Made by a program: the position numbers and the translations under genes. The notes under the pieces are model-generated. The model did not search any database. It was not told the DNA's origin and worked only from the letters and a program-made list of their open reading frames with translations. Positions 1,803-64,000 of a stretch of 64,000 nucleotides of DNA are shown here, one piece after another. Source of the stretch: an uncultured Candidatus Saccharibacteria bacterium (GTDB taxonomy: Bacteria > Patescibacteriota > CPR2 > UBA1875 > CAIMLA01); the NCBI GenBank assembly GCA_964501135.1, contig CAZCRI010000001.1, positions 192,393 through 256,392 of the forward strand, written 5' to 3'. Each line of letters begins with the position of its first letter. Within the stretch, counting starts at the first letter, position 1.

Positions 1803-1827
1803 AGCCCCCACTCGGGGGCTTTTTATT
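1803..1827 (+). terminator. Rho-independent terminator after typA
   Basis: Hairpin AGCCCCC-actc-GGGGGCT followed by TTTTATT. Confidence 0.7.
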
Positions 1828-1836
1828 ACAAAACAG

Positions 1837-1865
1837 TTGAATAAATGGCTCAACGGCACTATAAT
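1837..1865 (+). promoter_or_regulatory. Sigma70-like promoter, TTGAAT-17nt-TATAAT, driving GC-rich cassette 1
   Basis: TTGAAT at 1837-1842, 17-nt spacer, TATAAT at 1860-1865. The RBS AAGGAG lies 6 nt before the ATG at 1920. Confidence 0.55.
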
Positions 1866-1919
1866 GACCGAGCCAAAAGGAAATCTGCAGCCTATGCTGC
1901 CTGACCCGAAGGAGTACCG

Positions 1920-4117: not shown

Positions 4118-4672
4118 ATGGCTCTACTGGATGTACTGGACGAAGCGGGAATACCCACCGGTGACACTAAAACCAAGGCTGAAATTCATGAACAGGGGTT
4201 GTGGCATCGCTCCTCTCATGTTTGGGTTTACGATTCTACTGGAAATATTCTTTTGCAACTCCGCGCGAAAAATAAAGATAGCAGCCCAGGTCTTTGGGAT
4301 ATATCTGCAGCTGGCCATGTAGATGCCGGTGAAACCCCTGAATTTGCCGCTGTGAGGGAGGTAGAAGAGGAGATCGGACTTTCTACCACCGAAGATAATC
4401 TGAAAAAGGTCTGGGAAAGACGAGAGTCTACATTTGACCCGGCTAATGGCTGGACAAACAATCAGATTAGCTGCGAATATATTCTTCTTTATGACGGTAA
4501 GCATGAAGAGCTGGTTTATCAGGAGGAAGAAATTGACGAACTTCGCTGGCTTACCATCGAGGAACTTAAAAACGAATTCGCAGACCCTAGGACATTTAGT
4601 TTCTACGTTGATCATGGGGATGGTTATTATGAGAGAATTATTTCCGAGATTCAGAAAGCGCTCTGTAGATGA
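4118..4672 (+). CDS. NUDIX hydrolase
   Basis: Nudix box GHVDAGETPEFAAVREVEEEIGL. Confidence 0.7.
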   Translation: MALLDVLDEAGIPTGDTKTKAEIHEQGLWHRSSHVWVYDSTGNILLQLRAKNKDSSPGLWDISAAGHVDAGETPEFAAVREVEEEIGLSTTEDNLKKVWERRESTFDPANGWTNNQISCEYILLYDGKHEELVYQEEEIDELRWLTIEELKNEFADPRTFSFYVDHGDGYYERIISEIQKALCR

Positions 4673-5466
4673 ACTACTCTGAGGTAATGAAGAGGTTAGA
4701 ATCTCTGGCTAGCCACGACCCCGCCGATCTCGCGGGGATGGCTCGGTTTGGAATAAATGTTGATAAGGCTTGGGTGATTAGCATCCCGAAGTTGAGGAAT
4801 TTGGCAAAGGAAATAAAGCGCTCTGTCATTTCGACCGAAATGGAGAAATCTGCTCCGGGAAAAGCAGGAAGATCTCTCGGCTACGCTCGAGATGACAATG
4901 GTGGTGCGAAAAAACTTCACAACCTCGCGTTACAGGTCTGGGCAAGTGGCGTCCATGAAGCAAGAATTCTAGCTGGATTTATCGACGACTCAAGTGAGGT
5001 TACTGAAAAACAGATGGAAAGCTGGGTTTCGGAGTTTGATTCTTGGGATGTAACCGACATGATCTGTGGCAACCTCTTTGATCGTACGGAATTTGCAGTA
5101 AAGAAAGCCATAGAGTGGTCTGCTCGCGAAGAAGAATTCGTTAAGAGGGCTGGTTTCGTGTTAATGGCTGGTCTTGCCGTGCATGACAAGACAATGTCTG
5201 ACGCACAATTTGTTCAATTTCTAGAGATAATCAAACGTGAGTCAGGGGATAAGCGCAACTTTGTGCGTAAGGCTATAAATTGGGCCTTGCGGGCAATTGG
5301 CAAGAGTCGCAACAAATATTTATATCTACAAGCAAAGGTGATGGCACAGGAAATTTTGGATTCGATTGGTAACAGCAAAGATGAATCTGCACGGGCTGCT
5401 CGTTTTATTGCTGGTGATGCCCTCCGAGAATTAGAAAAAGAATACATTCAAAAGCGATTTTGCTAG
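4669..5466 (+). CDS. DNA alkylation repair enzyme (AlkD/AlkC-like HEAT-repeat glycosylase family)
   Basis: Helical-repeat protein with ...ARFGINVDKAWVISIPKLRNLAKE...WASGVHEARILAGFI...RAGFVLMAGLAV...RKAINWALRAIGK, a pattern typical of PF08713-type DNA alkylation repair proteins. The start overlaps the NUDIX stop (ATGA). Confidence 0.5.
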   Translation: MNYSEVMKRLESLASHDPADLAGMARFGINVDKAWVISIPKLRNLAKEIKRSVISTEMEKSAPGKAGRSLGYARDDNGGAKKLHNLALQVWASGVHEARILAGFIDDSSEVTEKQMESWVSEFDSWDVTDMICGNLFDRTEFAVKKAIEWSAREEEFVKRAGFVLMAGLAVHDKTMSDAQFVQFLEIIKRESGDKRNFVRKAINWALRAIGKSRNKYLYLQAKVMAQEILDSIGNSKDESARAARFIAGDALRELEKEYIQKRFC

Positions 5467-6142: not shown

Positions 6143-7750
6143 GTGTTGGGTAAAGATACCAAATACATTTTTGTTACTGGTGGTGTAATCTCGGGTCTCG
6201 GCAAGGGGATATTTGGAGCCTCTATTGGCAACATCCTCAAAAGTCGGGGCTTTTCTGTAAATATGCAAAAATGTGATCCGTATCTAAATGTTGATGCTGG
6301 AACCCTAAATCCTGGGGAGCACGGTGAGGTGTTCGTTACCGACGATGGCGCCGAAACCGATTTAGATTTGGGCCACTATGAACGTTTTATCGATACTCCA
6401 ATGACGAAACTTTCTTCTGTGATGACAGGGAAGATTTATACTCAGGTTCTTGAGGATGAGCGTAAGGGTAAGTACCTTGGCAAGACTGTACAGGTGATTC
6501 CGCATATTACCAATAAGATTCAGGACAACATCATAAATGCCGCTGGCGACTTTGATATTCACATCGTGGAGATCGGTGGTACCGTAGGTGACTATGAGGG
6601 ACTTCATTTTATTGAGGCTATCCGTCAAATGCGTCGCAAGGTTGGCCGGGAGAATGTCCTCTATGCGCACCTTGTTTACTTACCTTTTATTGAGGCTTCG
6701 AAGGAGCTCAAGACCAAGCCAGCACAGAACAGTGTTCGTGATCTTCTGCAGCTTGGAATTCACGCAAACATTGTAGCTTGCCGTGCCGATCATGCTATCG
6801 AGCAGGAACACCTAGCAAAAATTGCGCTCTATGCAGATGTGGACGAGAAGGCAGTAGTTCCGTTACCTACCATCAATAGTGTCTATAAGGTACCACGCAA
6901 TTTAGAGAAGGTCGGACTAGGAGATTATATCTGCGAGCAGCTGAATCTTCCAATCCGTAAACCTCAGGAAAATGGCTTGGTCAAGTACCTATTAGATCTG
7001 GAAAAGTCGGACAAGGAAGTTCGAATTGGTTTAATCGCCAAGTATATGTCAAACGAAGATACCTATAAGAGCGTCAACGAGGCTATCCAGGCAGCAACAG
7101 TAAACAATGGCGCTTGTGCTAAAATCGTTTGGGTCGATGCCGAGAAGATTGAGAAACAGGGCGTCGATATTCTAAAGGATCTCGATGGCATCGTTGTTCC
7201 GGGTGGTTTTGGAAATCGTGGAACCCTCGGTAAAGTTTTGGCAGCACAATACGCACGTGAGAACAATGTGCCTTATCTTGGGCTCTGCCTCGGTATGCAG
7301 ATTGCTACCATTGAATTTGCACGTAACGTTCTCGGCTGGAAAGATGCCGACAGTGAAGAATTCCGTCCAGAGGGCAAGTGTAATGTGATTCACATCATGC
7401 CAGAGCAAAAGGCAATTATGGACAAGGACGACTATGGTGCTACCATGCGACTCGGTGCCTACCCGTGTGTGCTTGATAAGAAATCACGTTCGTTCAAGCT
7501 TTATGGTGAAGAGAAGATTAGCGAGCGACATCGTCATCGCTTTGAGTTTAATAACGATCACAGGGAAGAGTTTACGGCTGCAGGACTGCTGTTTGCTGGA
7601 CTCTCACCGAATCATCACCTGGTGGAGATTGTGGAAATCCCAGAACATAAATTCTATGTTGGGGTGCAATTCCATCCAGAGTTCAAGAGTCGTCCAGGGA
7701 AGCCACATCCACTATTTGATGGTTTTGTAAAAGCGATTTTAGAAAAGTAA
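6143..7750 (+). CDS. pyrG: CTP synthase (GTG start)
   Basis: N-terminal synthetase domain YIFVTGGVISGLGKG. C-terminal glutamine amidotransferase domain GLCLGMQ plus the FHPEF motif. Length 535 aa. Confidence 0.95.
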   Translation: MLGKDTKYIFVTGGVISGLGKGIFGASIGNILKSRGFSVNMQKCDPYLNVDAGTLNPGEHGEVFVTDDGAETDLDLGHYERFIDTPMTKLSSVMTGKIYTQVLEDERKGKYLGKTVQVIPHITNKIQDNIINAAGDFDIHIVEIGGTVGDYEGLHFIEAIRQMRRKVGRENVLYAHLVYLPFIEASKELKTKPAQNSVRDLLQLGIHANIVACRADHAIEQEHLAKIALYADVDEKAVVPLPTINSVYKVPRNLEKVGLGDYICEQLNLPIRKPQENGLVKYLLDLEKSDKEVRIGLIAKYMSNEDTYKSVNEAIQAATVNNGACAKIVWVDAEKIEKQGVDILKDLDGIVVPGGFGNRGTLGKVLAAQYARENNVPYLGLCLGMQIATIEFARNVLGWKDADSEEFRPEGKCNVIHIMPEQKAIMDKDDYGATMRLGAYPCVLDKKSRSFKLYGEEKISERHRHRFEFNNDHREEFTAAGLLFAGLSPNHHLVEIVEIPEHKFYVGVQFHPEFKSRPGKPHPLFDGFVKAILEK

Positions 7751-20911: not shown

Positions 20912-20931
20912 CCCCCACCGTCATCCTGAGG

Positions 20932-20952
20932 AGTCCCGACGTAACGTCGGGG
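20932..20952 (+). repeat. Copy 1 of a recurring hairpin motif, TCCCGACG-taa-CGTCGGGG, in the pheT leader
   Basis: The same CCCGAC...GTCGGG stem recurs at 57396-57416 and 63935-63954, each just upstream of a gene or tRNA. Confidence 0.5.
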
Positions 20953-21005
20953 CGACGTGAGGATCTAGATCTTTCGACTTCGCTCAAGATGACATACGGA
21001 GAAAC

Positions 21006-25175: not shown

Positions 25176-25206
25176 TGAAAACAAGCACTTTTGTGCTTGT
25201 TTTAAG
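25176..25206 (+). terminator. Terminator hairpin AAACAAGCAC-tttt-GTGCTTGTTT, also present after giant gene 1
   Basis: 10-bp stem, followed by TTTAAGTTT. Confidence 0.65.
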
Positions 25207-25253
25207 TTTGGAAAAAGCCTAAAATTAATACATAAATGTAAGAGGGAGGGACC

Positions 25254-28200
25254 TTGGCCAAAAAGCCACGATTCCTGAAAGCTAGAAGCTATTGCAAGAA
25301 GGCAGTAAGTGCATGTTCTGCTATTTTTGGCTTGGCTATCGTTCGCGCTCTTACCTTCTTTATTGATAGGGCCAGAATCTGGCGGTTTGAGCTGATGTAT
25401 AAACTTCATCTCAAAGTTCGTTCGGTCCATGACAACTTGGTAATTAAGAATGTAATCTATAGAAAAGTCACTGAAAATAGGTATGCCATACCGGTGCGAA
25501 ACGCCTCGGTCTCGGCTTTCCTAGTTTCTCTGCTTCTCTTTACCTCTTTGCAGTACTTGTTGCCACTTCTAAATCCATTTAAGGCGACAGGGGTACAAGC
25601 TGGCAGTACAACTTATAATTGGCCGACAAACTCACCTTTTTCAAGCGCAGTTACCACCCCTAATATGGATTTTTCTACAACACCCAATAGCGCACAGCTT
25701 ACCAGAGGTTTGGATCACTATCTCGAAACCGGTACTGGTACAGATGGTTCTCTGACTGTCTCTAACCCCATGACAGTATGGAGAAATGGCGTTCAAGTCA
25801 CTAACGTTACAAGCTACAACATTAATACAGACAAATCTACTCCTAGTAGGGTTTGTAGTGAAGGCGGAGATGCTGTCAATTATTCTGTGACTGCGATTAC
25901 TCCTACAAGTGCAACACTATTAAATACTCCTGCGGCAAACTGTTTGGCAATGGGTGACGAAATACTACTTATTAATCTTAAGGGTACGCCCACTAATTAT
26001 GCCAATGTAGGTAATTATGAAACTTTTACTATTTCAAGTATATCGAGTAATGTAATAAACTTCTCAAGCGTAAAGACAAAATACTATGGAAATGATGGTG
26101 GTGATGCGAATATAGGCTCCACCATAAATGTCAATCAAATTGTAATGCTGCAAAGAGTACCAAATTATAGTTCTGTAAATGTTACTGGTACGTTAACTGG
26201 TAGCTCCTGGGACATAACTTATAAGAAAAACGGTGTTTTATTCTTTAGAAATACGGGTACAACTACAGTGAGTGGTGTTATCACTATGGATGGCAAAGGG
26301 TATTCTGGAGGTACGGTTGTAAATGGAGGCGAGGGATATAATGGAACTGGCGGTAATGGGGGCATTTATAATAGTGTTGGAAATATTGGTCAAGGCGGCG
26401 GGGGAGGAGGAGGTGGAAATACAAAAGCTGGTGGTCAAGGCACTACTGGATCAGGAGGTGGTGGGGGTGGTATAGGTCAAAATAGTTCCACCTGGTTTGG
26501 CGGCGGCGGCGGCGGTGGTGGCTATGGCACAGTGGGAACAGGTGGTTATTATAGTAATAGAATAGGTTCGCCTGGAAGTGGGAATCAGGGTGGTGCAGGA
26601 GTGTCAAGTAATAGTGGAATTGGCGCCAGTGGCGGTGGCGGAGGAATTTATGGTTCCTCAAGTACATTGAATAGTAAAATCTATTTTGGTTCGGGTGGCG
26701 GTGGAGGAGGAACTAGTGGTACCAGTGGGGGTCCCGGATACCCTGGTGGTTCGGGTGGTGGTATCATTCATATCGGTTCAAACAATATTACTGTTTCTGC
26801 TTCTGGGAATATTTCTGCAAAGGGAAGTAAGGGGGGTGATAATGGCACGGCCTATTGGTATGGTTCAGGAGGCGGGGGCGCTGGTGGGTCAGTTTATTTT
26901 TCTTCAAATTCTGTTAATAATTCTGGTACCGTGTCTGCTTCTGGTGGTACTGGGGGCGTAGGAAGTGCTGCTGCTAGTGCTGGTGGCACCGGTGGTTCAG
27001 GAAGAATTGGGATACAACATATTTCCACATCAACTTTCGGGACAATTTCACCCACCCCTACAAATATACAAATTGGTTCATTCACGGGTGTATACCAATA
27101 TGCGTCAAGCGGCAATATTGGAACGGCAGCAACAGATGCTGGTGGGTTGGTTCTTGATGCTGGTATTGGTAGGGCAATAAAGCCCTTTTCTCTCGATTGG
27201 TCTGCCGATACTACTATTAGCGGACAAAAAATATATTTTAAAGTTAGAACTGCGGCCCAATCTTCGGATCTTCACTCGGCGTCGTGCTATGGACCTGCGG
27301 GTAGTGATCCTACCTGCTCAGACTGGTCTACAGTTGGCACATATTTCTCTCAGGTAAACAGCGATGGTTCTATAACTACAAGCCCGTCTGAATTACCGGG
27401 ATCAATTTTAAGTACAATATTGCCGAATAGATATGTTGAAATATTAGTGTATATGGAGGTCGCAGAACGCTCTAGTAGTCCAGTTTTAACTAATCTTACA
27501 CTTTCCTATGATTCGTTAGATTACCCGTCTTATGACAAGTTATTACTATATAAATCTGATGCTTCTACGGTGCTTAAAAATTCATCTGGCTCAAATATTT
27601 CACTAGGTGCCGCAAATTCTGTTGGTGGGTATAACAATGAGTCGACAGTGGTACTTAAGGCTACAGATCTTACGTGTGGTACTGCTGCAAATGATAATTA
27701 TTGTTCAGGTTCAGTTTCTGGCTCTACATCACGTAAGCCCCAGGTTGAAGTGAGGGAAGTAGGTGCTGCCTTTGATGACACAACACTAGTAGAAGGGGCA
27801 AATTACTTTGCATCCGAAAGCACTTCCACTACCTCTACAGGCGAGCTTCAGTCTGGTCAAGTCTCTATAACAGGACTACAAACAGGCAAGCAATATCATG
27901 TAAGAGTTAGAATAGTAGATGCACAAAGCCGTGTATCTGCTTGGACGGCCTATGGAAATAATGCCGAGAGCGTAGCGGACTTTAGTATAGAACAGGATTC
28001 ACCCACACTGTCGACATTCACGATCAATTCAGGAGCATCCTACTCTAGCTCCTCCAATGTAACGCTAAACATTTCGGCTACCGATTCTGGTGGCTCAGGC
28101 CTTTCTCAAATGCAGTTCTCCAATAACGGAACAGACTGGGGTAAAACCGCTGATATTGACGGCAATATCACTGATACTGGCTGGGCAACTTATGCTACCA

Positions 28201-31200
28201 GTTACTCCTGGAATGTGGCAAAGGGTGTGGTAGATGGAGGTAGTGACACGGCTAGGACTGTGTATGCGAGAGTGAGAGATAATGCTGGGAATGTGAGCGG
28301 AAGGTTACACAACACAAAAGCTGATTTTGAGGGTAGTGGGTATCAAAAAGGCTTAGGAACAATAATAGCCGCAAACGGCACTCTCAGTTTACAAACCTTT
28401 AGCGGCTCGGAATCGGTTTCGTTAACAGGAACAGATGGGACAACTCGGACATATACGGGTGCTTCGGAGGTTAATGTTGGTTGGTCGGGTAGTTGTCCAA
28501 ATATTTCCATTAACATTGGCGGTGCCAGTGCTTACTCTGGGGGCGATGGTTCGGGCGCAACTGGGTGGATGAGTGGATCAACAACAACGGTTAGTTGCTA
28601 TGACGATACAGGTGAAAATAGTGCTTCAATAACCTTTAATATCTCGTTTAGGTCAACTCAGCTTCCTGTTTTTGATACCTATTCTTCACCAACAATAGCC
28701 TTGGGTACAGGGTCAACAGCAACCCAAATCGGTTGGGTTAACACTTCCGTTCCCGGTGATTCCTCGGTGAAATTTAAAGTCGCTACAAAAGACTCGGATA
28801 CCGGTTGGCAGACCTCCGACTTTATCGGCCCCGACGATACCGAAAACACCTTTTACGATATAAGTAGCGGCCAGAATCTTTCAACTCAGCATTTGAATAA
28901 AAGATATTTACGCTACAAAGCATTCTTATATTCGACATCAGATCGACTCCAAACACCTATCTTAGATTCAGTCAGTATTTACCAAGCTTTAGTCGCCACC
29001 ACTATTCTTGATACGCAGACACCTACAGGCACGGTGGCTATACGAGATTCTTCGTCTGGTTACGCCTTGAGCAAGAATGTGACCCTGAATCTTGAACCGA
29101 GTGACGCCGCACCATCATCGGGGCTAAAGGATTTTGCTCTTTCTAATGACGGAATCACTTGGTCCGGTTGGACAAATTGGAGTGAAACTTATCGGGCTGC
29201 AGGTGTGGGATATTCATGGACTTTAGCCGCTGGTGCTGATGGAACTCGAAATGTTTATGTGAAATATCGTGATAATGCTGGAAATGTAGGAGGTGTTAAT
29301 ATACCTGGGGATAATTGGACGCCTGGACAAGCTGAAACAGGGTACGCTACGGAGTTAGTGGGAAAATATGTTTACAATTTTGATGACCAATCATATCCGT
29401 ATCTTAAATGGAAATCGGATAGAGCTGATTGTAGCGGCAATCAATGTAGCAAGACAGCTTACCCTGCTCCTGATAGTTTTAATTCTCAAGCCAATGTACT
29501 TGTAAGTCCTCAGTTTAATCCAGGGGTTACATTTGGGACGGAATACCCAGCGCAGGAGGCTTGTAGTCTGATTGGTGGCCGTTTACCGAAGGTTAATGAA
29601 CTCAGGGCAATTTATGCAGGCAAGGTTGCTGGTCACTATAGTAACCTTGACGATTATTCATATTGGACTGCGACAGAGGTCCCTTGGAGCAGTGGCAATA
29701 GAACTTCGGCCTACTTGGTTCAATTTTATAATAACGGGAATCTTAGTTTCGATGTTAAAGATAGTACTATAGCAAGAACTAGGTGCGTTGCAGACGTTAC
29801 TCCTACAATAGGGGTTTCTGTCACACTTGACGTTTCCGGACCTGCCACCACTCTAAATATCAACCCGGCCACCCCAAATGGTGACAACGCTTGGTATAAA
29901 ATTGGTAAACCTACGGTTGCCTTTTCGTCCTCGGACAGTGCCTCGAAAACCGATAAAACATATTATGAATTTGTAACAACTGGCGCAGCTGCGCCAACGG
30001 TAGGTGCTTACACCAACACCCTAACCAACTCCGGGCAGGTTGACCCATATCAACCGTCTATACCTGTTGGTAATATACCAGAGGGGGATAACACACTGTA
30101 CTGGTATGCCGTAGACAAGGCGGGTAATGTAGAGAGCGTTCATAATCAGCAAATAAAGGTTGATATCCAAACACCTGCCACCACATATGTAATAGATCCT
30201 GAATTACCAAATGGCGACAACAACTGGTATACACTTACGGCGCCTACAATTACACTGAGCAGTAACGATCCCGGCACACCTAATTATTCTGGAGTGGCGA
30301 CACTTTACTACGCCTGGGAAACAGATACCAACCAAGCAGGTTGTACAGCACCGAAGTACTGGGAATCAAATGTAGGACGTTGCTTTAACGTCTACGCGGG
30401 AGCTTTTTCTCCGAATGATGGGAGCCACACACTGTATTATTTTTCGAAGGATAATGCTGGAAATGCCGATGCCGTTACTACAGAACAAATTTCCTACATT
30501 TCTCAGTTACCAAGCGTACCTTCGAATTTTCGGGCACCTGTGGGCGATCCAGAGACGGACGGCTCACACATTAAACTTTATTGGAATGCTTCAAGCTCGG
30601 TATCTGGCATTGTGGCTTATCAAATATTGAGGAAAAGGGAGATTGATAGCTGGGGCCAGCGCGATGCTACAATTGACTTACCGCTTCCGTTGAGTAATAC
30701 GATATACTTAGACTCGAACGAAACAACCACCCCAAATGGCTTGAATATTTTGGAAACTGGGCAACGGTATAACTATAAGATAAGGGCGCGTGATAATGCG
30801 GGGAACTGGGGCTCTTTCTCTACAGATAAACTGGGGTATACTGCAGACTTTATATCTCCGACACCAGTTACTGGAGTTTTGGCGGAAGCCTGTGACGGGA
30901 CACTTTATGACTCTCAAAATAGCCCAAATGGAAAATGTAGCGATATTGGCAACGAAGGGTTTGAGGTCAAGCTTACTTGGAATAGCTCAAACGACACTGG
31001 AGTTGGTATGTCCAAGTATATCATTTATCGTTCTACAACCAATTCGGCAGATGAAGCTGAGTGGCCAGTAGTGGGGGTGTTGGAATACGCTTCTGGGCAG
31101 GAGACCATTTGGTTTGATAATGACACCAATAACGCTGCTACTTTTACTACTGACAAACCTTCTGCTACCCCGATACTGAACGATTCAACCGATTATTATT

Positions 31201-34200
31201 ATCGTATCAGAGCTTTTGATAATACTGAATCAGGAAACCCAACAGCATTATTTCCGTCTGATCCTGGGCTCTTTCTTTCTAACTTTAGCTCTACTACAAC
31301 CCCTGATGTTACTGCACCGACCGTTCCAAGTAATGTTGTTGCTTCACCGCTTGGTCTTGACTCATCGGGCAGCCATCAGAAGGTTCATCTTACTTGGAGT
31401 GAGTCGAAGGATTACAGGCGACGCTCTAGTGATGAGGTAGCAGGGATTGTAAACTATAACGTTTACCAAGCTACCAATCCCGCAGGACCATATACCTTGG
31501 CGAGAACAACATCTGAGATTGTCATTGACCTAGATGGGTTAGATGAATTTACTAACTACTATTATGCAGTGGAATCATATGACAGTGTTCCGAATACCTC
31601 AGCTCGTTCTGACTCCGCTACGGCCCGGACAGCTTCCAACTCGGTACCAACAACTCCGACTGATGTAACAGTGACAACTAAGACGGGTGACCCTGCGACG
31701 GATTCACAGATCGGCCACAAAAACACCATTAGTTTTAATGGGTCTTATGCTAAAAATTGCCTGAACTCAGTTGGTTGTTTGACAAAGTATGAAGTCTATC
31801 GCTCCACGAATAATTATTCTGATTATCAGACATGGCTTACGAATGGAACAAAAATTGCTGAAGTAGCACCAGCTGATCTTCGGGATGACCGCACGGCGAC
31901 AGTACAGAACAATCAGGGTAATGTGGTTAGGAGCGAGCCTTATCAGGTGGTAGATACCGGCCAGATTTATCCGGCAACTTCTGCGAATGGGCTTACCAAC
32001 GCCACTACTTATTACTACAGGGTTTGGGCGCTGGATAATACACCTGATCCAGTAACTGGCGGAGTTTGCCCCGTGACCCTAGTAGGGGTTCAGTGTAATT
32101 ACCATTCACCAATGACGACAGTAGAAGTTGGTACACCACACGCTGGTTGGGACACGACTGCAGATGATGAAGCTCCTGCCTTACCGACCGAACTCAAGGT
32201 GAAGGACATTCATGATGACGGATACGCCTTTAAGCGCAATATTATTACCTGGGCGCGTATCGAAGACCCTCTCAGGAATGGCACGAATGACTTTTATGAA
32301 TACCGAATTTACCGATCAGATGATGGAGTTACTTGGGAACAAATATGTACCGATGGCACCAATCAATACCTGCAAGCAGAATGCGGCCTGCCGAATGAAA
32401 GTCATTACAATCCTCTTTTTAATGCGGATCAAGAACTAGGGCTCGCCACGAACTATTATATGGATTTGATACCAAATTCGTTGGCAAACCAATATTATTA
32501 TTATCACGTAACAGCAGTTGATAATGCTGGATCTAGTTTTCGCTATTCAAACGGCCAGGTGATAAATAAAGTTGGTAATGTGACTTACTCGAACGAGTCT
32601 GAACCTGCAAGAGACGGAAATGGTAACATCGTCTCTGAGTCGCTAAATCCGGCAATCGCAAAGCCTACGATTACAACAACGGGTGCCTTTGCACCAAGGA
32701 TGGTGAATGTAGGAGTCTCCTCGGCGAGTCTTCAGTGGTATGCCGATCAGCCGACAGACTCAGTGGTAGAGTTCAAGGCGGTATCAGATACAGAATGGAT
32801 TACGATAGGTGAGCGAGAGAAAAAGAACCCAGATACACCTCACGTTGTAAATCTTTTCGGTCTTAGACCAGCTACGGAATATGAATATAAACTCATTTCT
32901 AGAAATAGTTTAGGCAACGAGGACGTTCTCGGTGACCGGCAAGAAGAAAAGGTGACGGTCCCGAACTTTACAACCAATTCATTCACAGTCAACTATCAGG
33001 CCGATAAGATAGAGAAGTCCACAGTATCTATTAAGCTTTTCTGGACCACGAATATGCCTGCAAATACAAACATTGTCGAGTATAAGCTTAGCAACGGTGA
33101 CCAGACTGGTTCGACAGCGGAGACGCCAGTGAATCTAGATGCAATACCTAGTAACGGACGAAATTGTGCAGCGACGCCGTCGTTGTGTAATCACACCGTT
33201 ACTCTATCTCCACTCCGCGGAGCTAGTGAGTATACTTTCAAGATAAGGGCGATGTCACTTGATGGGTTCAATACCGAAACCTCTTTTCTTTCGTTTATCA
33301 CTGATAACGCCGATACTAGGCAATTTACGATGGTGCCCTCATCTTCGAACGTAGCTGATCGCAACATCACTGCTACTTCGGCACAGATTGTATGGCAAAC
33401 TGCAGTTCCGACCACGGCAATTGTTCACTTTGGGACTTCTAAATCTGGTCCATATGCTAGCACCGCTACAGACAGCGTCTTTAGCTCCTCACACGTGGTT
33501 GTTCTCGAGGGGTTAACCCCGGGCGAGACATATTACTATTGGGTGGAAGCTAAGGACATCAATAACTTGGTTTACTCTTCTCCGGAATACTCCTTTAAGG
33601 CTGTGCTTAAGCCAAAAATCTCTAACATGCAGCTCAAGAATGTAACACCATACGCCGTAACGATTGCCTGGGACACCAATATTGAGACAGAGACAGTTAT
33701 AAACTGGGGCAAGACAGCTGTTTATGGCGAGAAACGAGGGGTTTCTGGTCTAAGTAAAGTACATCAAGTGGTGATAGACAATCTGGAAGACAATCAGGAA
33801 TATCATTATCAGATCCTGGCTAAGGATGAGACGGGCAATGAAGTTGCAGATACTGACAAGATTGTTCGTACCCCCCTCGACACCGAGGGACCAAAGATTA
33901 CCAATGCCAAGACTGATATTCTCCCTATGGGTGAGAATGACACAACCGCATCAGTGATCATCTCTTGGAATACCAATAAACCAGCTACCACGCTCGTCGA
34001 GTATGATGAAGGTATCATCGGCGGCGGCTATGGTAACAGGTCTGTGGAGGACACTTCGCTAAATACTTCACACACCGTTATCATAAAGAACCTAAAGCCA
34101 GCATCCTCATTTCACTATCGTATGGTCTCTGCTGACAAGCGTAACAACATCACGCAGTCGCAGGACTACACCTTCGTCACACCGACGAAAGAAAAGTCCA

Positions 34201-34304
34201 TCCTACAGCTCATCTTAAAGTCACTCGAGGAAACCTTCGCTTGGACAAAGAACCTCAATCAATTCTTTGGAAATATTGGCAAAAGAATCACTGGTAAAAA
34301 GTAA
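25254..34304 (+). CDS. Giant cell-surface protein 1 (3016 aa, TTG start). It has an N-terminal membrane anchor, a Gly-rich region, Ig-like/Fn3 repeats, a DUF1566/C-type-lectin-like domain and a C-terminal Fn3 (purple-acid-phosphatase-N-like) array
   Basis: GGGAGGG RBS. TM VSAFLVSLLLFTSLQYLLPLL. Poly-Gly tracts (GGGGGGGG). A recurrent DNAGN motif at Ig-like domain ends. A lectin-like ...CSLIGGRLPKVNEL...YWTATE...RCVAD segment near nt 29530-29790. The C-terminal ~730 aa are paralogous to the next gene. Confidence 0.8.
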   Translation: MAKKPRFLKARSYCKKAVSACSAIFGLAIVRALTFFIDRARIWRFELMYKLHLKVRSVHDNLVIKNVIYRKVTENRYAIPVRNASVSAFLVSLLLFTSLQYLLPLLNPFKATGVQAGSTTYNWPTNSPFSSAVTTPNMDFSTTPNSAQLTRGLDHYLETGTGTDGSLTVSNPMTVWRNGVQVTNVTSYNINTDKSTPSRVCSEGGDAVNYSVTAITPTSATLLNTPAANCLAMGDEILLINLKGTPTNYANVGNYETFTISSISSNVINFSSVKTKYYGNDGGDANIGSTINVNQIVMLQRVPNYSSVNVTGTLTGSSWDITYKKNGVLFFRNTGTTTVSGVITMDGKGYSGGTVVNGGEGYNGTGGNGGIYNSVGNIGQGGGGGGGGNTKAGGQGTTGSGGGGGGIGQNSSTWFGGGGGGGGYGTVGTGGYYSNRIGSPGSGNQGGAGVSSNSGIGASGGGGGIYGSSSTLNSKIYFGSGGGGGGTSGTSGGPGYPGGSGGGIIHIGSNNITVSASGNISAKGSKGGDNGTAYWYGSGGGGAGGSVYFSSNSVNNSGTVSASGGTGGVGSAAASAGGTGGSGRIGIQHISTSTFGTISPTPTNIQIGSFTGVYQYASSGNIGTAATDAGGLVLDAGIGRAIKPFSLDWSADTTISGQKIYFKVRTAAQSSDLHSASCYGPAGSDPTCSDWSTVGTYFSQVNSDGSITTSPSELPGSILSTILPNRYVEILVYMEVAERSSSPVLTNLTLSYDSLDYPSYDKLLLYKSDASTVLKNSSGSNISLGAANSVGGYNNESTVVLKATDLTCGTAANDNYCSGSVSGSTSRKPQVEVREVGAAFDDTTLVEGANYFASESTSTTSTGELQSGQVSITGLQTGKQYHVRVRIVDAQSRVSAWTAYGNNAESVADFSIEQDSPTLSTFTINSGASYSSSSNVTLNISATDSGGSGLSQMQFSNNGTDWGKTADIDGNITDTGWATYATSYSWNVAKGVVDGGSDTARTVYARVRDNAGNVSGRLHNTKADFEGSGYQKGLGTIIAANGTLSLQTFSGSESVSLTGTDGTTRTYTGASEVNVGWSGSCPNISINIGGASAYSGGDGSGATGWMSGSTTTVSCYDDTGENSASITFNISFRSTQLPVFDTYSSPTIALGTGSTATQIGWVNTSVPGDSSVKFKVATKDSDTGWQTSDFIGPDDTENTFYDISSGQNLSTQHLNKRYLRYKAFLYSTSDRLQTPILDSVSIYQALVATTILDTQTPTGTVAIRDSSSGYALSKNVTLNLEPSDAAPSSGLKDFALSNDGITWSGWTNWSETYRAAGVGYSWTLAAGADGTRNVYVKYRDNAGNVGGVNIPGDNWTPGQAETGYATELVGKYVYNFDDQSYPYLKWKSDRADCSGNQCSKTAYPAPDSFNSQANVLVSPQFNPGVTFGTEYPAQEACSLIGGRLPKVNELRAIYAGKVAGHYSNLDDYSYWTATEVPWSSGNRTSAYLVQFYNNGNLSFDVKDSTIARTRCVADVTPTIGVSVTLDVSGPATTLNINPATPNGDNAWYKIGKPTVAFSSSDSASKTDKTYYEFVTTGAAAPTVGAYTNTLTNSGQVDPYQPSIPVGNIPEGDNTLYWYAVDKAGNVESVHNQQIKVDIQTPATTYVIDPELPNGDNNWYTLTAPTITLSSNDPGTPNYSGVATLYYAWETDTNQAGCTAPKYWESNVGRCFNVYAGAFSPNDGSHTLYYFSKDNAGNADAVTTEQISYISQLPSVPSNFRAPVGDPETDGSHIKLYWNASSSVSGIVAYQILRKREIDSWGQRDATIDLPLPLSNTIYLDSNETTTPNGLNILETGQRYNYKIRARDNAGNWGSFSTDKLGYTADFISPTPVTGVLAEACDGTLYDSQNSPNGKCSDIGNEGFEVKLTWNSSNDTGVGMSKYIIYRSTTNSADEAEWPVVGVLEYASGQETIWFDNDTNNAATFTTDKPSATPILNDSTDYYYRIRAFDNTESGNPTALFPSDPGLFLSNFSSTTTPDVTAPTVPSNVVASPLGLDSSGSHQKVHLTWSESKDYRRRSSDEVAGIVNYNVYQATNPAGPYTLARTTSEIVIDLDGLDEFTNYYYAVESYDSVPNTSARSDSATARTASNSVPTTPTDVTVTTKTGDPATDSQIGHKNTISFNGSYAKNCLNSVGCLTKYEVYRSTNNYSDYQTWLTNGTKIAEVAPADLRDDRTATVQNNQGNVVRSEPYQVVDTGQIYPATSANGLTNATTYYYRVWALDNTPDPVTGGVCPVTLVGVQCNYHSPMTTVEVGTPHAGWDTTADDEAPALPTELKVKDIHDDGYAFKRNIITWARIEDPLRNGTNDFYEYRIYRSDDGVTWEQICTDGTNQYLQAECGLPNESHYNPLFNADQELGLATNYYMDLIPNSLANQYYYYHVTAVDNAGSSFRYSNGQVINKVGNVTYSNESEPARDGNGNIVSESLNPAIAKPTITTTGAFAPRMVNVGVSSASLQWYADQPTDSVVEFKAVSDTEWITIGEREKKNPDTPHVVNLFGLRPATEYEYKLISRNSLGNEDVLGDRQEEKVTVPNFTTNSFTVNYQADKIEKSTVSIKLFWTTNMPANTNIVEYKLSNGDQTGSTAETPVNLDAIPSNGRNCAATPSLCNHTVTLSPLRGASEYTFKIRAMSLDGFNTETSFLSFITDNADTRQFTMVPSSSNVADRNITATSAQIVWQTAVPTTAIVHFGTSKSGPYASTATDSVFSSSHVVVLEGLTPGETYYYWVEAKDINNLVYSSPEYSFKAVLKPKISNMQLKNVTPYAVTIAWDTNIETETVINWGKTAVYGEKRGVSGLSKVHQVVIDNLEDNQEYHYQILAKDETGNEVADTDKIVRTPLDTEGPKITNAKTDILPMGENDTTASVIISWNTNKPATTLVEYDEGIIGGGYGNRSVEDTSLNTSHTVIIKNLKPASSFHYRMVSADKRNNITQSQDYTFVTPTKEKSILQLILKSLEETFAWTKNLNQFFGNIGKRITGKK

Positions 34305-34327: not shown

Positions 34328-34364
34328 GCTAAAACAAGCACGTTTTGTGCTTGTTTTAGCTCGG
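34328..34364 (+). terminator. Terminator hairpin GCTAAAACAAGCAC-gtttt-GTGCTTGTTTTAGC, same core as 25176-25206
   Basis: 14-bp stem plus a T-run. Confidence 0.7.
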
Positions 34365-34398
34365 GCAAAGTATTACAATTTATCTATAACTTGCGAGG

Positions 34399-37300
34399 GT
34401 GATGAAACCTAAAAAAGCTCAGCTAAATTCAGTGTGGAAACGAGCTACAAAGCTACTATCGAAAAGTAGTAATTTTAGGTTACGCAAAAGTTTTTTTACT
34501 CAAATTCCGTTGCGTTCACTATCCTTCGTCTGGTCACTCTTCAAACATATTATTTCTTTCCTAGCGAAGAACGTTATCTTGGTCCTTATAAATTTTATTG
34601 ATTATCTAGTAAAACTGCTCCAGATATTACGCTATGAGCTGACCTATAAATTCCACCTCAAGGTTCGCTCGGTACATGACACTTTGGTAATACGTGTGCC
34701 GGTTTACAAGAAGGTTACAGAACATCAGCTAGCTGTCCCAGTACGCAATGCAACTGTATCGGCTTTCTTCTGCTCATTAGCAATCTTTTTATCTCTCCAG
34801 TATGTACTGCCTCTTTTTAATCCGTTTGCCCCACAGGGAGCTCACGCGGGATCAAATAGTGCGACCTGGACCACAGATTCTGACTTTAATAACAATACAA
34901 TTACAACAAACACACCTACAACCAAGAATACAACAAATTTTGCAGGTACAGTTCTTGCCACAACCGGTAGTACTTCAGTTGTGGGCACGGGTACATCTTT
35001 TGCAGATTATCTGGATCCTTTTAATACTCCTAAGGCTATTAATATAGACGATGTTTCTTATGGTGTGGCTAGTGTGACCGACAATACCCATCTGACACTT
35101 ACTGCAAACTATCAAGGGACTACTGGCTCGGGGAAAACATTCACCTTTGATAATGTTGTAGTGAATGATGATGCCATAAGTCTACGTAAATATGGTCTCC
35201 CTGTAACTAAAACTTCAACTTTTACAGTTCCTAGCGGTGTCACGAAAATATATATTGACATGAAGGGTGGCGGAGGCGGTGGTGGTTCTACTGTTTATTC
35301 TGGAGGGAATTGCGGACAAGCCGGAGGCGCCGGGGGATACTCAGCGCTTAAGATTGATAACGGACTAGAATACTGGGCATTCGGCGGCGGCGGAGGTGGA
35401 GGAGGTTGCCCTAACTTTGTTGGGGCAACAGGCTCTCCTGGAACCTATAATCACCGAAACGTTCCCACCTTAATACCCGTTGATGGAGGGGCAAATAATG
35501 GAGGTATAGGGGGTTACTATGCAAGTACTAGCCGTGGAGGTAATGGTGGTGCGGGGGGCAGGATCACGGGCACATTGGCAGTCACTGGGGGTCAAGTTGT
35601 CACAATAACAAATGGTGCTGCAGGGGTTGGTGCTACTGGCCCAAGCGGATGGCCAAAGGTAAACGGAGCGAATGGATCCGCAGGCTCTGTAGAGGTACTG
35701 TATTACATCCCTGCATTTGCAGGAAATGGTAATATAACTGGCTTTAAAATTGATGCAGGGGCAGGACTTAAATATAAGTGGAGTTCCTTATCATGGGTTA
35801 CTGATGCCTTACCAAGTAATACATCGGTGAGGTTTAAATACAGAACATCAGACGACGGTTCCAGCTGGTCTGATTCTACCTGGTCACAAACAGGAACGGC
35901 ACAAATAACTGGTAGTTCAGGAGGAGCTTCTTTGACCAGTTTGAGTGCTTCCAGATACTTGGAACTTCAGCTGCTGCTGTATTCCGTAGACGGAGTCTAT
36001 TCCCCTAAGCTAAATGAGTTTATAGTACAGTACGATACCTTGGAAGCACCCTTAAATGAAAACCTATCGTTAACTGACATAAGTAATAACTCATTAAGAA
36101 CCACAACGGGTATGATTACAGACGTTCCGATCGAGACCACTTCTATACCGGCGGGGCATTCCAGATATGGAACTCCAAACACTTGGACAAATCAAGCTAC
36201 AGTAAGGCTTAAGGCAAACAACCTTACCTGCGGGAGTGGTGTGACGGCATGTACTGTTACTTCTACAAACCTAAGACCAGAAGTGGAGATAAAGCCTATT
36301 GTTAATGGGGTTCCAACGGCATTTACGGGCAGTGGAGTGACGGCAGATGAAGGCAAGACCTATGTCGATATTTCTGGTTTAGCTACAAACTCAGCCTACC
36401 ATATCCAAGTAAGAGCCGTGGATGGTCAGGCCAGAGCATCTGCCTGGGTGTCGTATGGAAATAACGGAGAGTCGGAACCAGATGTTACGGTAGAACAAAC
36501 GTCTCCCACCCTTCAGCTTAATGGTTTTGCGGATCAAGCTGGCAGTGATATTTTGGAAAAAGGAGGTGTGCTATACACCAGGAGTAATCAGGTAAAGATG
36601 AAGATTGGAACCTCTGACAATGGGGGTATACGTTCGAACCTTGCAAAAGTAATGATAACTAACAACCTCGACGACACAGGGTGGCAGGATGTTACGAATC
36701 AAATTACAAACTATCAGACACAGTATCTTGGACAATCATCGTTTACTGGGCTAGTACCCTGGACTCTTGAGGGCACGGACGGAGTAAAGACCGTTACTGT
36801 CAAAACTGTAGACAATGCTGGCAACGTCAGTGGACAGAGCATTGTGACTTCAACGGAGCTATCTACTACCGATAGTACTTTTGTGGTTTCTCCTGCAGGT
36901 AATGCGGGCGGCGCTGTAGTTGTAGATAATAAACTTCAGTTATCATCGACAACTAGTGGCGGAGTGGGTAGTTCGACTACCTCTGTATACCCAACAAATG
37001 ATGAAACTACATACTGGGATGAATGGTGCGGAGGCTGGTCATTGGATGAAAACCCAATGGGCACCAATTCTGGCTACGATAATGACTGTGGGAGTTGGGG
37101 GCAAGATGCGCACATTACCTTCAATAACGGTTTAGTTTCTGGTCTAACAAATGCAAGTATAAGGATTACCAGTAATGGTGATGCACTTACCTGGGTCTGG
37201 CATGATACGACAGGTACTTCTAATAGTGTTAATCTGACTACTAATACACCAAATTCACTAGATATCACGGCAATGGTCCAGGCAGATATTGCGAATGGTG

Positions 37301-56977: not shown

Positions 56978-57005
56978 TTGACATGCCTCACTCCTTTGCT
57001 ATAAT
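56978..57005 (+). promoter_or_regulatory. Consensus sigma70 promoter, TTGACA-16nt-TATAAT, about 420 nt upstream of the surface protein gene
   Basis: TTGACA at 56978-56983, TATAAT at 57000-57005. Confidence 0.55.
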
Positions 57006-57364
57006 TTCACTACGCCTTTTGCGAAAGTAAGGGGTACGGAATCCGAAATCCTGTTTATGCCAAATCAGCATAGAGGTTACAAAACAAACAAACTATTCTG
57101 ATACGAACAAAGTAAGGGAGTGAATGCTTTGACCTATGGGTGCGCACACAGTACTGCTACACGGTTGACACAAGTGCCTATGGGAAACAGCAAATGGTGA
57201 AGCCGGTCACATTTCCTCGAAGTTTTTTATGGTAATAAATATCAAACTTGGAGGGAGGGTGATCGGTTTTTGTTTTGTCAAAATTATGGCAACACCGATC
57301 AGAACTCTCATAACACAAACACAGAATGACAGAAGCGTAATTAATCAGTAATAATAAACGTAAG

Positions 57365-57416
57365 CCCCGACGTTTCGTTGTTCGAAAGTCGGGATCCCGA
57401 CCGCAAGCGTCGGGGG
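57365..57416 (+). repeat. Tandem hairpins (copy 2 of the CCCGAC...GTCGGG motif) overlapping the RBS of the surface protein gene
   Basis: CCCCGACGTTTCG-ttgtt-CGAAAGTCGGG, then AT, then CCCGAC-cgcaag-CGTCGGGGG. The RBS GGGGGAGG shares the 3' arm. Confidence 0.5.
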
Positions 57417-60829: not shown

Positions 60830-62288
<1,459 letters not shown>

Positions 62289-62488
62289 CTAAGGAGTAAG
62301 ATGTTGTTTATTCAACAATCTAGGCCGAATCGAGACTTACGTATGTTAGATATACCCTCAGGGTTGATAATATATTAAATTATCTTGAAGGTTTGGTTCC
62401 CTGTTCTGCTATTATTCGGCTGTCAAAAGTCGGCAAGAGACTCCACTTCGGTGGTGTTTTTTGTTTCTATAAAGTAAGATTGAGTGTG

Positions 62489-63208: not shown

Positions 63209-63217
63209 GGTGAGACC

Positions 63218-63787: not shown

Positions 63788-63796
63788 CCAAAATTA

Positions 63797-63825
63797 TTGA
63801 TAATATCAGGGAAATCTGGTAGAAT
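63797..63825 (+). promoter_or_regulatory. Sigma70-like promoter, TTGATA-17nt-TAGAAT, upstream of tRNA-Ile (and presumably 23S)
   Basis: TTGATA at 63797-63802, TAGAAT at 63820-63825. Confidence 0.45.
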
Positions 63826-63914
63826 ATTGTCTGTTAGTTGCTTGTTATTTGTTTTTGGTTCTTAGCTAAAAACGAATAGCCAATAACTAAGAACGGGTTG
63901 CGGGCGATTAGCTC

Positions 63915-63954
63915 CCCGATGCTTCGATCGGGATCCCGACTGTATACGTCGGGG
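63915..63954 (+). repeat. Tandem hairpins (copy 3 of the CCCGAC...GTCGGG motif) 19 nt upstream of the tRNA
   Basis: CCCGAT-gcttcg-ATCGGG, then AT, then CCCGAC-tgtata-CGTCGGGG. Confidence 0.5.
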
Positions 63955-63972
63955 CAGATGGTTGGTTCGCTA

Positions 63973-64000
63973 GGGCGATTAGCTCAGATGGTTAGAGCGC
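63973..64000 (+). tRNA. tRNA (probably tRNA-Ile), 5' portion only, cut by the window end
   Basis: GGGCGATTAGCTCAGATGGTTAGAGCGC. The D-arm GGTTAGAGCGC is typical of tRNA-Ile(GAU) in rRNA operons. Confidence 0.6.

Follow-up and report, generated by a model that had tools for sequence, protein, structure and literature searches.

Hairpins upstream of pheT, a surface-protein gene and tRNA-Ile are probably copies of a short, structured repeat family of Patescibacteria

The same G/C-rich stem occurs shortly upstream of pheT, of a surface-protein gene and of tRNA-Ile in the window, i.e., the whole stretch of 64,000 nt analyzed here. This raises the question of whether the three hairpins are a conserved 5′-leader element, as proposed in the initial annotation, or whether they came to lie at these positions in another way. 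The pattern CCCGAC-N{4,10}-GTCGGG has exactly three matches in the window (Table 1). The recurrence of the stem was thereby confirmed, since dinucleotide-preserving shuffles contained 0.02 matches on average and none of 100 gave three. With the relaxed pattern CCCGAY-N3-25-RTCGGG five matches were found against 0.15 expected, the additional ones being partner hairpins at sites 2 and 3. The signal disappeared when the stem was cut to 5 bp (eight matches compared to 3.3 expected), and a scan of the window allowing one mismatch per hairpin returned five further weak candidates, with about 1.9 expected. The gene context had been named correctly. Site 1 is flanked by pheS and pheT, and a 554-aa fn3/Big-type secreted protein begins 10 nt past site 2.

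The anatomy of the elements required correction. A second, related hairpin had been described in front of each copy; it exists at sites 2 and 3, but site 1 has no such partner. In addition, CCCGAC at site 1 is preceded by a G/T context (GAG-TCCCGAC) and not by ATCCCGAC. The AT found at sites 2 and 3 is a 2-nt junction that joins two hairpins, and each of these sites forms one unit of the type Y-CCCGAY-loop-RTCGGG-AT-CCCGAC-loop-GTCGGG-G. The centre of this double hairpin, GTCGGGATCCCGAC, is a perfect 14-bp palindrome. Folds of the window elements are moderately more stable than those of shuffled sequences (z about -2.2), and the hairpins are followed by GCGACG, GAGGTA and CAGATG. The corrected limits are listed in Table 1, in which E denotes the element.

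Table 1. Positions of E copies, LP palindromes and tRNA-Ile pieces in the window.
Feature	Positions	Strand	Description
Site 1	20934..20952 (19 nt)		Single hairpin TCCCGACG-TAA-CGTCGGGG, two outer 8-nt arms only; in pheS-pheT spacer; pattern match 20935-20951
Site 2	57365..57415 (51 nt)		Complete double-hairpin E; hairpin 1 57366-57393, AT, hairpin 2 (pattern match) 57396-57414; between 5′ leader and Shine-Dalgarno sequence of the 554-aa surface-protein gene, ATG 57426
Site 3	63914..63954 (41 nt)		Complete double-hairpin E; hairpin 1 CCCGAT/ATCGGG 63915-63932, hairpin 2 (pattern match) 63935-63953
LP copy 1	20920..20993		GTCATCCTGAGGAG[site 1]CGACGTGAGGATCT|AGATCTTTCGACTTCGCTCAAGATGAC; site-1 hairpin nested in left arm after GGAG
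LP copy 2	4825..4896		In frame within ORF 4669-5466, peptide ..SVISTEMEKSAPGKAGRSLGYARDD..
Pseudo-tRNA-Ile fragment, nt 1-12	63902..63913	+	GGGCGATTAGCT, directly 5′ of E; identical to true tRNA start at 63973
Pseudo-fragment continued, tRNA nt 13-21	63955-63963	+	CAGATGGTT, 3′ of E
9-nt spacer	63964-63972	+	GGTTCGCTA, before intact tRNA
Intact tRNA-Ile(GAT), 5′ part	63973..64000	+	Ends at window edge; identical to ARAGORN-called tRNA-Ile start in L162

The single hairpin of site 1 is itself nested in a longer palindrome, LP, whose outer stem folds as GUCAUC/GAUGAC. The right arms of the two LP copies in the window are alike at about 23 of 27 positions, as counted by eye. The pheS-pheT spacer of three relatives (loci L113-L115) carries a different long GTCAT...ATGAC palindrome, GTCATTCCTGGTCGCAAGCCAGGAATC...GATTCCTGGCTTGCGACCAGGAATGAC, with a DNA fold of -36.6 kcal/mol (z = -12). 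Arms of the LP type also flank an ORF for a GIY-YIG nuclease in another locus (L172, 2897-3190). LP is a second palindromic repeat family, distinct from E, that hosts site 1.

That the hairpins represent insertions rather than a leader signal was first suggested by site 3, where E sits within a duplicated 5′ end of the tRNA. The order is GGGCGATTAGCT[E]CAGATGGTT-ggttcgcta-GGGCGATTAGCTCAGATGGTTAGAGCGC. With p = 12, x = 21 and 9 nt of spacer, it fits a general layout [tRNA nt 1-p][E][tRNA nt p+1-x][ORF or spacer][intact tRNA], which 12 other loci share. The intact tRNA-Ile at 63973 is missed by ARAGORN because the gene is cut by the end of the window. A tRNA intron or a permuted tRNA was considered and rejected, as an intact tRNA follows and the whole structure is missing in relatives. 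A simple target-site-duplication model does not fit the tRNA-linked duplication either: tRNA nt p+1-x stand directly after E, and the duplication of about 30 nt at site 3 is not symmetric around the element. Two protein genes lie between the 16S gene of the window and this tRNA-Ile.

The same loci were then compared in relatives whose flanking proteins are 70–77% identical to those of the window (L113-L115 for site 1; L162, L164 and L165 for sites 2 and 3). The CCCGAC hairpin of site 1 is absent from the pheS-pheT spacer of L113-L115, three metagenome relatives with PheS 70–72% identical. The E copies of sites 2 and 3 are missing in L162, L164 and L165, where the empty sites can be read base by base. 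In the syntenic L164 (same gene order, CYTH protein 77% identical), site 2 reads ...ccgtaag|gaggaataATG, whereas the window has ...acgtaag[51-nt E]gaggtaaaaaATG. Site 2 is thus an exact 51-nt insertion at the boundary between leader and Shine-Dalgarno sequence, without target-site duplication. At site 3, the promoter before tRNA-Ile (TTGATA-17-TAGAAT in the window) is common to the window and all three relatives, and the leader is found in L162 as well. In the relatives, the promoter region runs directly into tRNA-Ile, with neither E nor a duplicated 5′ fragment. As for the CYTH protein of the window, its named homologues are mostly from Patescibacteria; in this and in the separation of 16S from tRNA-Ile by protein genes, the window itself resembles Patescibacteria.

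Set against these empty sites, the three window copies show themselves in the alignments as lineage-specific insertions. Insertion and loss in all relatives are inseparable at any single site, because the relatives are only 70–77% identical at the protein level, but loss is unlikely given three independent sites and the copies within coding sequences described below. The proposal of a conserved 5′-leader element does not hold, as E is missing from the same leaders in the closest relatives available even though promoter, leader, Shine-Dalgarno sequence and genes are conserved. More specific functions that had been suggested (RNase processing site, attenuator, translational riboregulator) are unsupported in view of the empty sites, the lack of T-runs and the lack of an Rfam family. 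The sharing of the 3′ arm of site 2 with the ribosome-binding site is real; it arises from the landing spot, as the relative without E has cgtaag|gaggaataATG. The suggestion that did prove correct is that of a small dispersed repeat family, which extends throughout Patescibacteria and is much larger than could be seen in the window.

Other readings of the window hairpins were discarded. A search for terminator-like sites found no T-tract after any E hairpin in the window, and intrinsic termination was rejected for want of a T/U tract; ordinary bidirectional terminators do occur elsewhere in the window. Rfam gave no match at the gathering score and chance-level matches at E<=1. The resemblance of site 1 to a hammerhead ribozyme (CUGAGGA...) was not borne out, as no GAAA core was seen by eye after stem II and Rfam returned nothing.

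The extent of the family was determined by scanning one genome per species (185,579 species) with the 20-base pattern TCGGGATCCCGAC-N4-10-GTCGGGG. The scan returned 112 loci, roughly 75 of which are low in GC, and the low-GC loci are almost all from Patescibacteria. Groups carrying E include Saccharibacteria, Nomura-, Paceibacteria, Parcubacteria, Kaiser-, Jorgensen-, Taylor-, Vogel-, Specht-, Kerfeld-, Levy-, Gottesman-, Kuenen- and Doudnabacteria. We suspect that the few low-GC loci in bins labelled as other taxa are mis-binned. High-GC loci (Actinomycetota and similar) were dismissed as chance matches in coding sequence, and three pattern matches in viral contigs, two of them high-GC chance matches, were not convincing as E. 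Since this census was seeded by an exact pattern, the conservation of the stem among its copies is partly imposed by the search.

The full element can be written as (AG)Y-CCCGAC-G-loop-GTCGGG-AT-CCCGAC-loop-C-GTCGGG-R(CT), with hairpin units of 17–28 nt; including the single-hairpin form, E is 19–59 nt long. The consensus at 144 element ends, read from the outside inward, is A (61%), G (59%), Y (100%), CCCGAC and G (81%). In 45 of 55 copies the loop of hairpin 1 begins with G, and in 47 of 55 that of hairpin 2 ends with C. Where the loops fold into an upper stem (e.g., CC-UUCG-GG), these bases become single-nucleotide bulges on the outer strands. Owing to the same conserved G and C, the outer arms CCCCGACG and CGTCGGGG are perfect complements of 8 nt; written as (AG)YCCCGACG and CGTCGGGR(CT), the arms are perfect complements over 8–10 nt. 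Loops are variable but belong to a recognizable set, GNAAR in hairpin 1 and C(n)-GAAA/AGAA-G(n)-C in hairpin 2, and the closing pair of each hairpin is C-G or T-A.

Two side-by-side hairpins describe the pairing best: Watson-Crick pairs are kept at the variable stem position in 108 of 110 cases, compared to 86 of 110 under a model pairing arm 1 with arm 4 and arm 2 with arm 3. Compensatory variants of the outermost pair also exist (TCCGAC/GTCGGA and GCCGAC/GTCGGC). The retained pairing and the compensatory changes therefore indicate that the hairpins are real structures, in either single-stranded DNA or RNA. In L172, both half-sites of the central palindrome are altered symmetrically to TCGAGGATCCTCGA. 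The stems are conserved in sequence, unlike those of typical RNA motifs, which points to recognition by a protein. These data establish E as a dispersed, phylum-restricted, structured repeat.

Preferential location in 5′ leaders is not a property of the family. Within Patescibacteria, 36 of 85 copies lie in frame inside ORFs of at least 100 aa, and the others are found in tRNA pseudo-fragments, spacers and leaders, or between convergent or divergent genes. Peptides encoded by E occur in all three frames (...P(D/T)xxVGIPTxxVG..., ...SGSR... and ...RDPD...). From their translations, we take the host genes to be NusA, uS9, LeuRS, LigA, a RecG-like helicase, RNase R, PCMT and a NifS-like desulfurase. 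In the RecG-like, PCMT, NifS-like and NusA sets, orthologues are gapped exactly at the E peptide (L039 vs. L081, L077 vs. L035, L073 vs. L015, and L100 vs. L014 and L053). One insertion is common, in diverged form, to two NusA genes that are 76% identical (L100 and L007).

The coding copies are clean in-frame inserts of 39–45 nt that add 13–15 hydrophilic residues. Their core length is 1 mod 3, i.e., divisible by three when the bases Y and R at the ends are counted, in 17 of 24 cases, compared to 20 of 46 non-coding copies. This bias implies that the inserts are translated and not spliced out. Of 24 coding copies, 22 have the strand with the A-rich loops as their sense strand (p = 4e-5), and the same orientation is seen for 14 of 19 co-directional intergenic copies. 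Possible reasons for the strand bias are selection for a hydrophilic peptide, selection at the RNA level, or strand-specific insertion. Taken across loci, copies survive wherever they are tolerated, namely in spacers, leaders, duplicated 5′ tRNA fragments and in-frame coding sites.

Upstream of about 12 tRNA genes in E-bearing loci (for Phe, Arg, Lys, Ile, Val and Glu), the first 10–14 nt of the respective tRNA are duplicated and split by E, always in the layout [t1-p][E][t(p+1)-x][spacer][intact tRNA]. The spacer between E and tRNA is filled by a GIY-YIG ORF in seven loci (L078, L094, L091, L169, L170, L171 and L172). The ORF encodes 85–92 aa in L078 and L094 (tRNA-Glu) and L091 (tRNA-Phe), and its last codons together with the TAG stop are nt 1–15 (Glu) or 1–10 (Phe) of the intact tRNA. 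At the 5′ ends of tRNA genes, E and UPF0213-type GIY-YIG genes are thus physically linked.

The ORF products match Pfam GIY-YIG PF01541, their only PDB relatives being 1ywl and 1zg2 (UPF0213). They belong to the Slx1-like proteins that stand alone, a group defined by Dunin-Horkawicz et al. (2006; PMC1564403). Among the 120 homologues listed of 262, nearly all end in GPIV, AAFV, GAIV, AAIV or the like, C-termini that we read as translated tRNA 5′ ends similar to that of tRNA-Glu. In the same 120 of 262, 18 of 21 homologues with an over-called N-terminus read through E peptides (...IGIPT...VGASG..., SGSR). Three homologues were traced to DNA and led to four loci, L169-L172, each with the full arrangement.

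Other GIY-YIG ORFs are flanked by inverted repeats of roughly 20 bp (L064, L002 and L009). In L009 the ORF lies in frame inside trmD, between GC-rich inverted repeats. This parallels reported cases in which Slx1-like domains were recently inserted into HsdR or fused to a tRNA methyltransferase (TrmH) (Dunin-Horkawicz et al., 2006; PMC1564403). If the duplication had come before E, pseudo-fragments without E might be expected; they are rare in the Patescibacteria loci (L052, and a tRNA-Ala with a GIY-YIG ORF in L009). Pseudo-fragments of tRNA-Arg with different inserts were seen in other bacteria. No transposase, recombinase or RAYT/Y1 gene was identified near the 85 copies; within 2.5 kb, no transposase-like neighbour recurred, and recurrent neighbours were housekeeping families and GIY-YIG. 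A profile search found no GIY-YIG ORF in the 64-kb window, which therefore carries solo elements that can at most be related to GIY-YIG cassettes.

Altogether, the hairpins are most probably copies of a short, structured, selfish DNA repeat family, E, that is specific to Patescibacteria (CPR bacteria). With about the same assurance, and as part of the same reading, the positions of the window copies near a start codon, a Shine-Dalgarno sequence or a tRNA would result from tolerated insertion combined with a preference for ...AG|Y or tRNA D-arm-like targets, not from a leader function. The copies probably have no role for pheT, the surface-protein gene or tRNA-Ile, apart from the incidental effects of a stable hairpin that adjoins a Shine-Dalgarno sequence or lies in a discarded tRNA leader. 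We infer that E propagates as non-autonomous DNA that is recognized through its hairpin feet and bulges, in the manner of REP/REPIN or IS200/IS605-type elements. At tRNA genes, its occurrence only in duplicated 5′ fragments would be explained by the lethality of copies in real tRNA genes.

A candidate trans-acting partner is the small UPF0213/Slx1-like GIY-YIG nuclease, the gene of which lies directly downstream of E at tRNA 5′ ends. Site 3 of the window looks like such a cassette lacking its ORF. The nuclease is the lead candidate for the mobilizing enzyme, a plausible but unproven one. The precise, duplication-free insertion is not explained by a GIY-YIG enzyme alone, because a hydrolytic nuclease cannot ligate. 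Formally, the tRNA-side layout would be produced if the chromosomal tRNA recombined, by a single crossover left of E, with a circular or other donor [t1-p]-E-[t(p+1)-x]-ORF.

It is possible, and we put it forward only tentatively, that E and LP are the cis-acting or non-autonomous parts of an undescribed class of mobile cassettes built around the 80–95-aa nuclease, with ORF-less derivatives that spread in trans. A full cassette would colonize a tRNA 5′ end, leaving the old fragment split by E and supplying a new 5′ end, so that the tRNA stays intact. ORF-less palindromes would then spread in trans to spacers and leaders, and in frame to essential genes, across Patescibacteria. Since the ORF ends on a TAG inside the tRNA D arm, the nuclease mRNA would be non-stop after processing by RNase P. 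In a bolder variant, the transcribed [tRNA 1-11]-E-[tRNA 12-26] might act as a hairpin-scaffolded guide or decoy for the nuclease.

The selfish-repeat reading has to be weighed against the conservation of E itself, since feet of 6 bp that stay the same in very deep lineages of Patescibacteria could mean a host function. E might then be a domesticated module (a site for a nucleoid or segregation factor or for an RNA-binding protein, a DNA-uptake signal, or a 5′/3′ mRNA stabilizer), kept by selection and not by mobility. The identity of feet, bulges and central palindrome across these lineages is consistent with such a role, and so is the joint change of the two half-sites in L172. The orientation bias relative to transcription fits selection at the RNA or protein level no less than insertion in a strand-specific way. 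A role in DNA uptake is conceivable, as natural competence is reported for cultivated Saccharibacteria (PMC10187176; see also PMC10633639). However, the sites are not conserved between relatives, and the copies look like insertions that break tRNA-like sequences and occupy variable loops of essential proteins. The uptake signals known to us are linear motifs of one species or family, not phylum-wide hairpins, and we know of no host protein associated with E. We thus regard domestication as unlikely.

Site 3 suggests still another origin, since it has the exact layout of a GIY-YIG cassette with 9 nt in place of the ORF. If so, E could be immobile by itself, and solo copies would be scars of decayed or deleted cassettes consisting of E, ORF and tRNA patch. 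The inverted repeats flanking other GIY-YIG ORFs also fit, and the ORF-less LP resembles a collapsed cassette. This origin is put into question by the coding copies, which carry neither ORF remnants nor tRNA pieces, and by site 2 with its exact insert. Repeated exact loss of a 250-nt ORF is improbable, and we consider the scar model quite unlikely.

Finally, a conserved cis-acting leader RNA (an RNase III/Y site, attenuator or riboregulator) for the three window genes is largely refuted and very improbable: the copies do stand on the coding strand 10–54 nt before a start codon or tRNA, one of them with its 3′ arm adjoining a Shine-Dalgarno sequence, and they combine moderate fold stability with often GNRA- or UUCG-like loops and compensatory stem changes, but this is outweighed by the empty leaders of relatives, the many copies inside ORFs or between convergent or divergent genes, the lack of T-tracts and Rfam matches, and stems that are conserved in sequence instead of covarying freely.

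Among known systems, REP/BIME/REPIN sequences of Proteobacteria, associated with RAYT (TnpA-REP, HUH-Y1) transposases, share several traits with E. In both, short imperfect palindromes have stems of conserved sequence and a bulge that is likewise conserved, form inverted doublets, and lack target duplication; both are present in many copies per genome, E with three sites in 64 kb and further copies in other loci. REPs carry a GTAG motif outside the hairpin foot. The motif of E at this place, (T/A)AG-Y with the end frequencies given above, is similar without being identical, and is literally GTAG in tRNA contexts only. The sequences are unrelated and belong to different phyla, no RAYT gene was found near any of the 85 copies, and REPs are extragenic by definition, unlike E.

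E resembles MITEs (e.g., Correia elements) and IS200/IS605-derived PATEs in being small, non-coding, dispersed, bounded by inverted repeats and presumably mobilized in trans. The terminal inverted repeats of MITEs have their counterpart in the 8–10-nt outer arms of E. Classical MITEs, however, have a target-site duplication, and E has none in the comparison of filled and empty site 2, being in this respect like IS200/IS605 elements, which insert beside a short motif without duplicating it. The hairpin feet of E are at its very ends and not subterminal, and the search for a transposase gave no parent IS, of either the DDE or the HUH type, for E.

Rickettsia palindromic elements (RPEs), reportedly described by Ogata and colleagues in 2000, are known to live in frame inside protein genes, where they are tolerated, and also occur between genes. 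We know of no mobilizing enzyme for them. E behaves like an RPE but is not a member of that family: RPEs are 100–150 bp long and confined to one genus, whereas E is much shorter, spans a superphylum and is tied to duplicated tRNA 5′ ends and to GIY-YIG ORFs.

The ORFs next to E are of the same type as the UPF0213 GIY-YIG proteins 1ywl and 1zg2. A stand-alone nuclease with a comparable location is T4 SegB, which, according to a passage of PMC2330249, is a site-specific endonuclease encoded among tRNA genes and needed for preferred inheritance of the T4 tRNA region. The E-linked proteins differ from SegB and other stand-alone GIY-YIG enzymes in their small size and in having no DNA-binding domain. 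Their genes differ from known GIY-YIG genes in lying between a hairpin-split tRNA fragment and the intact tRNA, with the stop codon in the tRNA.

The palindrome GTCGGGATCCCGAC had no occurrence in 8 million full texts, and topic searches of the same texts found no description of E. Neither the GIY-YIG/tRNA cassette nor its palindromic companion was found described in that literature, and Rfam holds no model of E. The family is thus apparently undescribed.

Patescibacteria have tiny, streamlined genomes and are usually considered poor in mobile DNA. A phylum-wide, sequence-conserved hairpin element inserts cleanly into their leaders, tRNA-like sequences and essential genes (NusA, uS9, LeuRS, LigA and RNase R). 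The interest lies in the breadth of the family, in its copies within essential genes and in the nuclease and tRNA architecture, and less in the window copies. In annotation, E copies give rise to “hypothetical” peptides that are spurious, to apparent “leader motifs” and, in at least 18 database proteins, to over-extended gene calls. In evolutionary terms, E would be an independent second case, beside the RPEs of Rickettsia, of selfish palindromes living within protein genes. What is new compared to RPEs is a concrete candidate enzyme and a testable insertion architecture at tRNA genes. If the link to the GIY-YIG nuclease is causal, it would represent a new mode in which an essential RNA gene is occupied by a nuclease gene without an intron.

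The small GIY-YIG nuclease ORFs of 80-97 aa found at four of the compared loci (L172, L064, L002 and L009) have close-in inverted repeats of ~20 bp on both sides. At L172 these repeats are arms of the type seen in the LP palindromes, GTCATTTCGA...TCGAGATGAC, and LP palindromes without an ORF may therefore be collapsed GIY-YIG cassettes. The second LP copy of the window lies within an ORF, to whose product it contributes the peptide SVISTEMEKSAPGKAGRSLGYARDD; judged from its own sequence, this product looks like a DNA-alkylation-repair protein. By eye, the right arm of this copy is identical to the right arm at 20967-20993, in the pheS-pheT spacer, at about 23 of 27 positions. Inverted repeats also border a whole GIY-YIG domain inserted in frame into trmD of L009 (962-1960), where they are GC-rich (GCCTACCTGCGCCGCGGCCGG / CCGGCCGGACGCGGCAGGCAGGC). 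The TrmD orthologues of L015 and L079 are without this insert.

Some of the GIY-YIG ORFs terminate within a tRNA gene. At L078 (2984-2998), L094, L091 and L169-L172 the stop codon is a TAG in the D arm, located at nt 13-15 in tRNA-Glu and at nt 8-10 in tRNA-Phe. Because of this position, cleavage by RNase P at the tRNA 5' end would leave the nuclease mRNA without a stop codon, which could be a built-in brake on nuclease expression.

Within the window, two promoters precede the surface-protein gene. Since the weaker one ends just before the E hairpin repeat, the surface-protein mRNA may start at this E copy or close to it. Between the 16S rRNA gene and the tRNA-Ile gene lie two protein genes, one CofE-like (F420 ligase family) and one for a CYTH protein. 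The tRNA-Ile gene is served by a promoter of its own at 63797-63825 (TTGATA-17-TAGAAT), and relatives share this promoter. The two giant ORFs have in common a C-terminal repeat of 300 nt (33864-34163 / 42181-42480), and the sequences upstream of them are similar (25189-25235 / 34343-34389).

Positions of features in the window and in the compared loci
Feature	Location	Position	Strand	Remarks
LP copy no. 2	window	4825-4896		in frame within ORF 4669-5466; arms GTCATTTCGACC...AGATCTCTCGGCTACGCTCGAGATGAC
Giant ORF	window	25254-34304		3016 aa; glycine-rich GGN repeats
Giant ORF	window	34399-42621		2740 aa; glycine-rich GGN repeats; adjacent to 25254-34304
Perfect consensus promoter	window	56978-57005		TTGACA-16-TGnTATAAT; ~420 nt upstream of surface-protein gene
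Weaker promoter	window	57326-57355		ends 10 nt before E (site 2)
16S rRNA gene	window	60830-62288		region considered: 60830-64000
GIY-YIG ORF between inverted repeats	L172	2897-3190	minus	
GIY-YIG ORF between inverted repeats	L064	6509-6793		
GIY-YIG ORF between inverted repeats	L002	7078-7356		
GIY-YIG ORF between inverted repeats	L009	6450-6728		
RNA-like locus carrying E	L035	~6790-6870		
RNA-like locus carrying E	L037	~1820-1900		
RNA-like locus carrying E	L064	~6950-7040		

Whole or partial copies of E also occur elsewhere in the compared loci. In three genomes (L035, L037 and L064) E occupies the same position of a locus that is conserved and resembles an RNA, CGGCAGGTCTTA...GCCTGT[E]CTGTCTGCGGAT. 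Rfam calls no family there, and E may have interrupted an RNA gene. At L052 (55-176 and 928-953) a unit of ~96 nt is present in three copies, two of them in tandem, each terminating in hairpin 2 of E and carrying a different and longer hairpin 1, CGACTTTC...GAAAGTCG. Half an E is among the several different hairpins that make up a 34-aa in-frame insert in the NifS-like gene of L073 (4800-4900). Unlike clean E insertions, this insert has an 8-bp direct repeat, CTCACTAT, on either side.

Other arrangements were found at tRNA genes. In Doudnabacteria (L097, 3780-4330) an intact tRNA-Val is surrounded by tRNA 5' and 3' halves, the latter repeated, with complementary tails (CCCCGTTAGATTTTC / AAAATCTAACGGGG); the halves may be remnants of integration sites stacked on one another, or belong to a tRNA that is split or contains an intron. 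The tRNA-Arg(GCG) genes of metagenome contigs L120, L121, L142, L146 and L148 (GC 0.46-0.62) are preceded by a duplicate that covers the first 12 nt of the gene together with ~20 nt of the flank upstream of it, and a hairpin-rich insert of 60-80 nt, unrelated in sequence, lies between duplicate and gene. This suggests that insertion with duplication in the 5' portion of tRNA genes extends beyond E.
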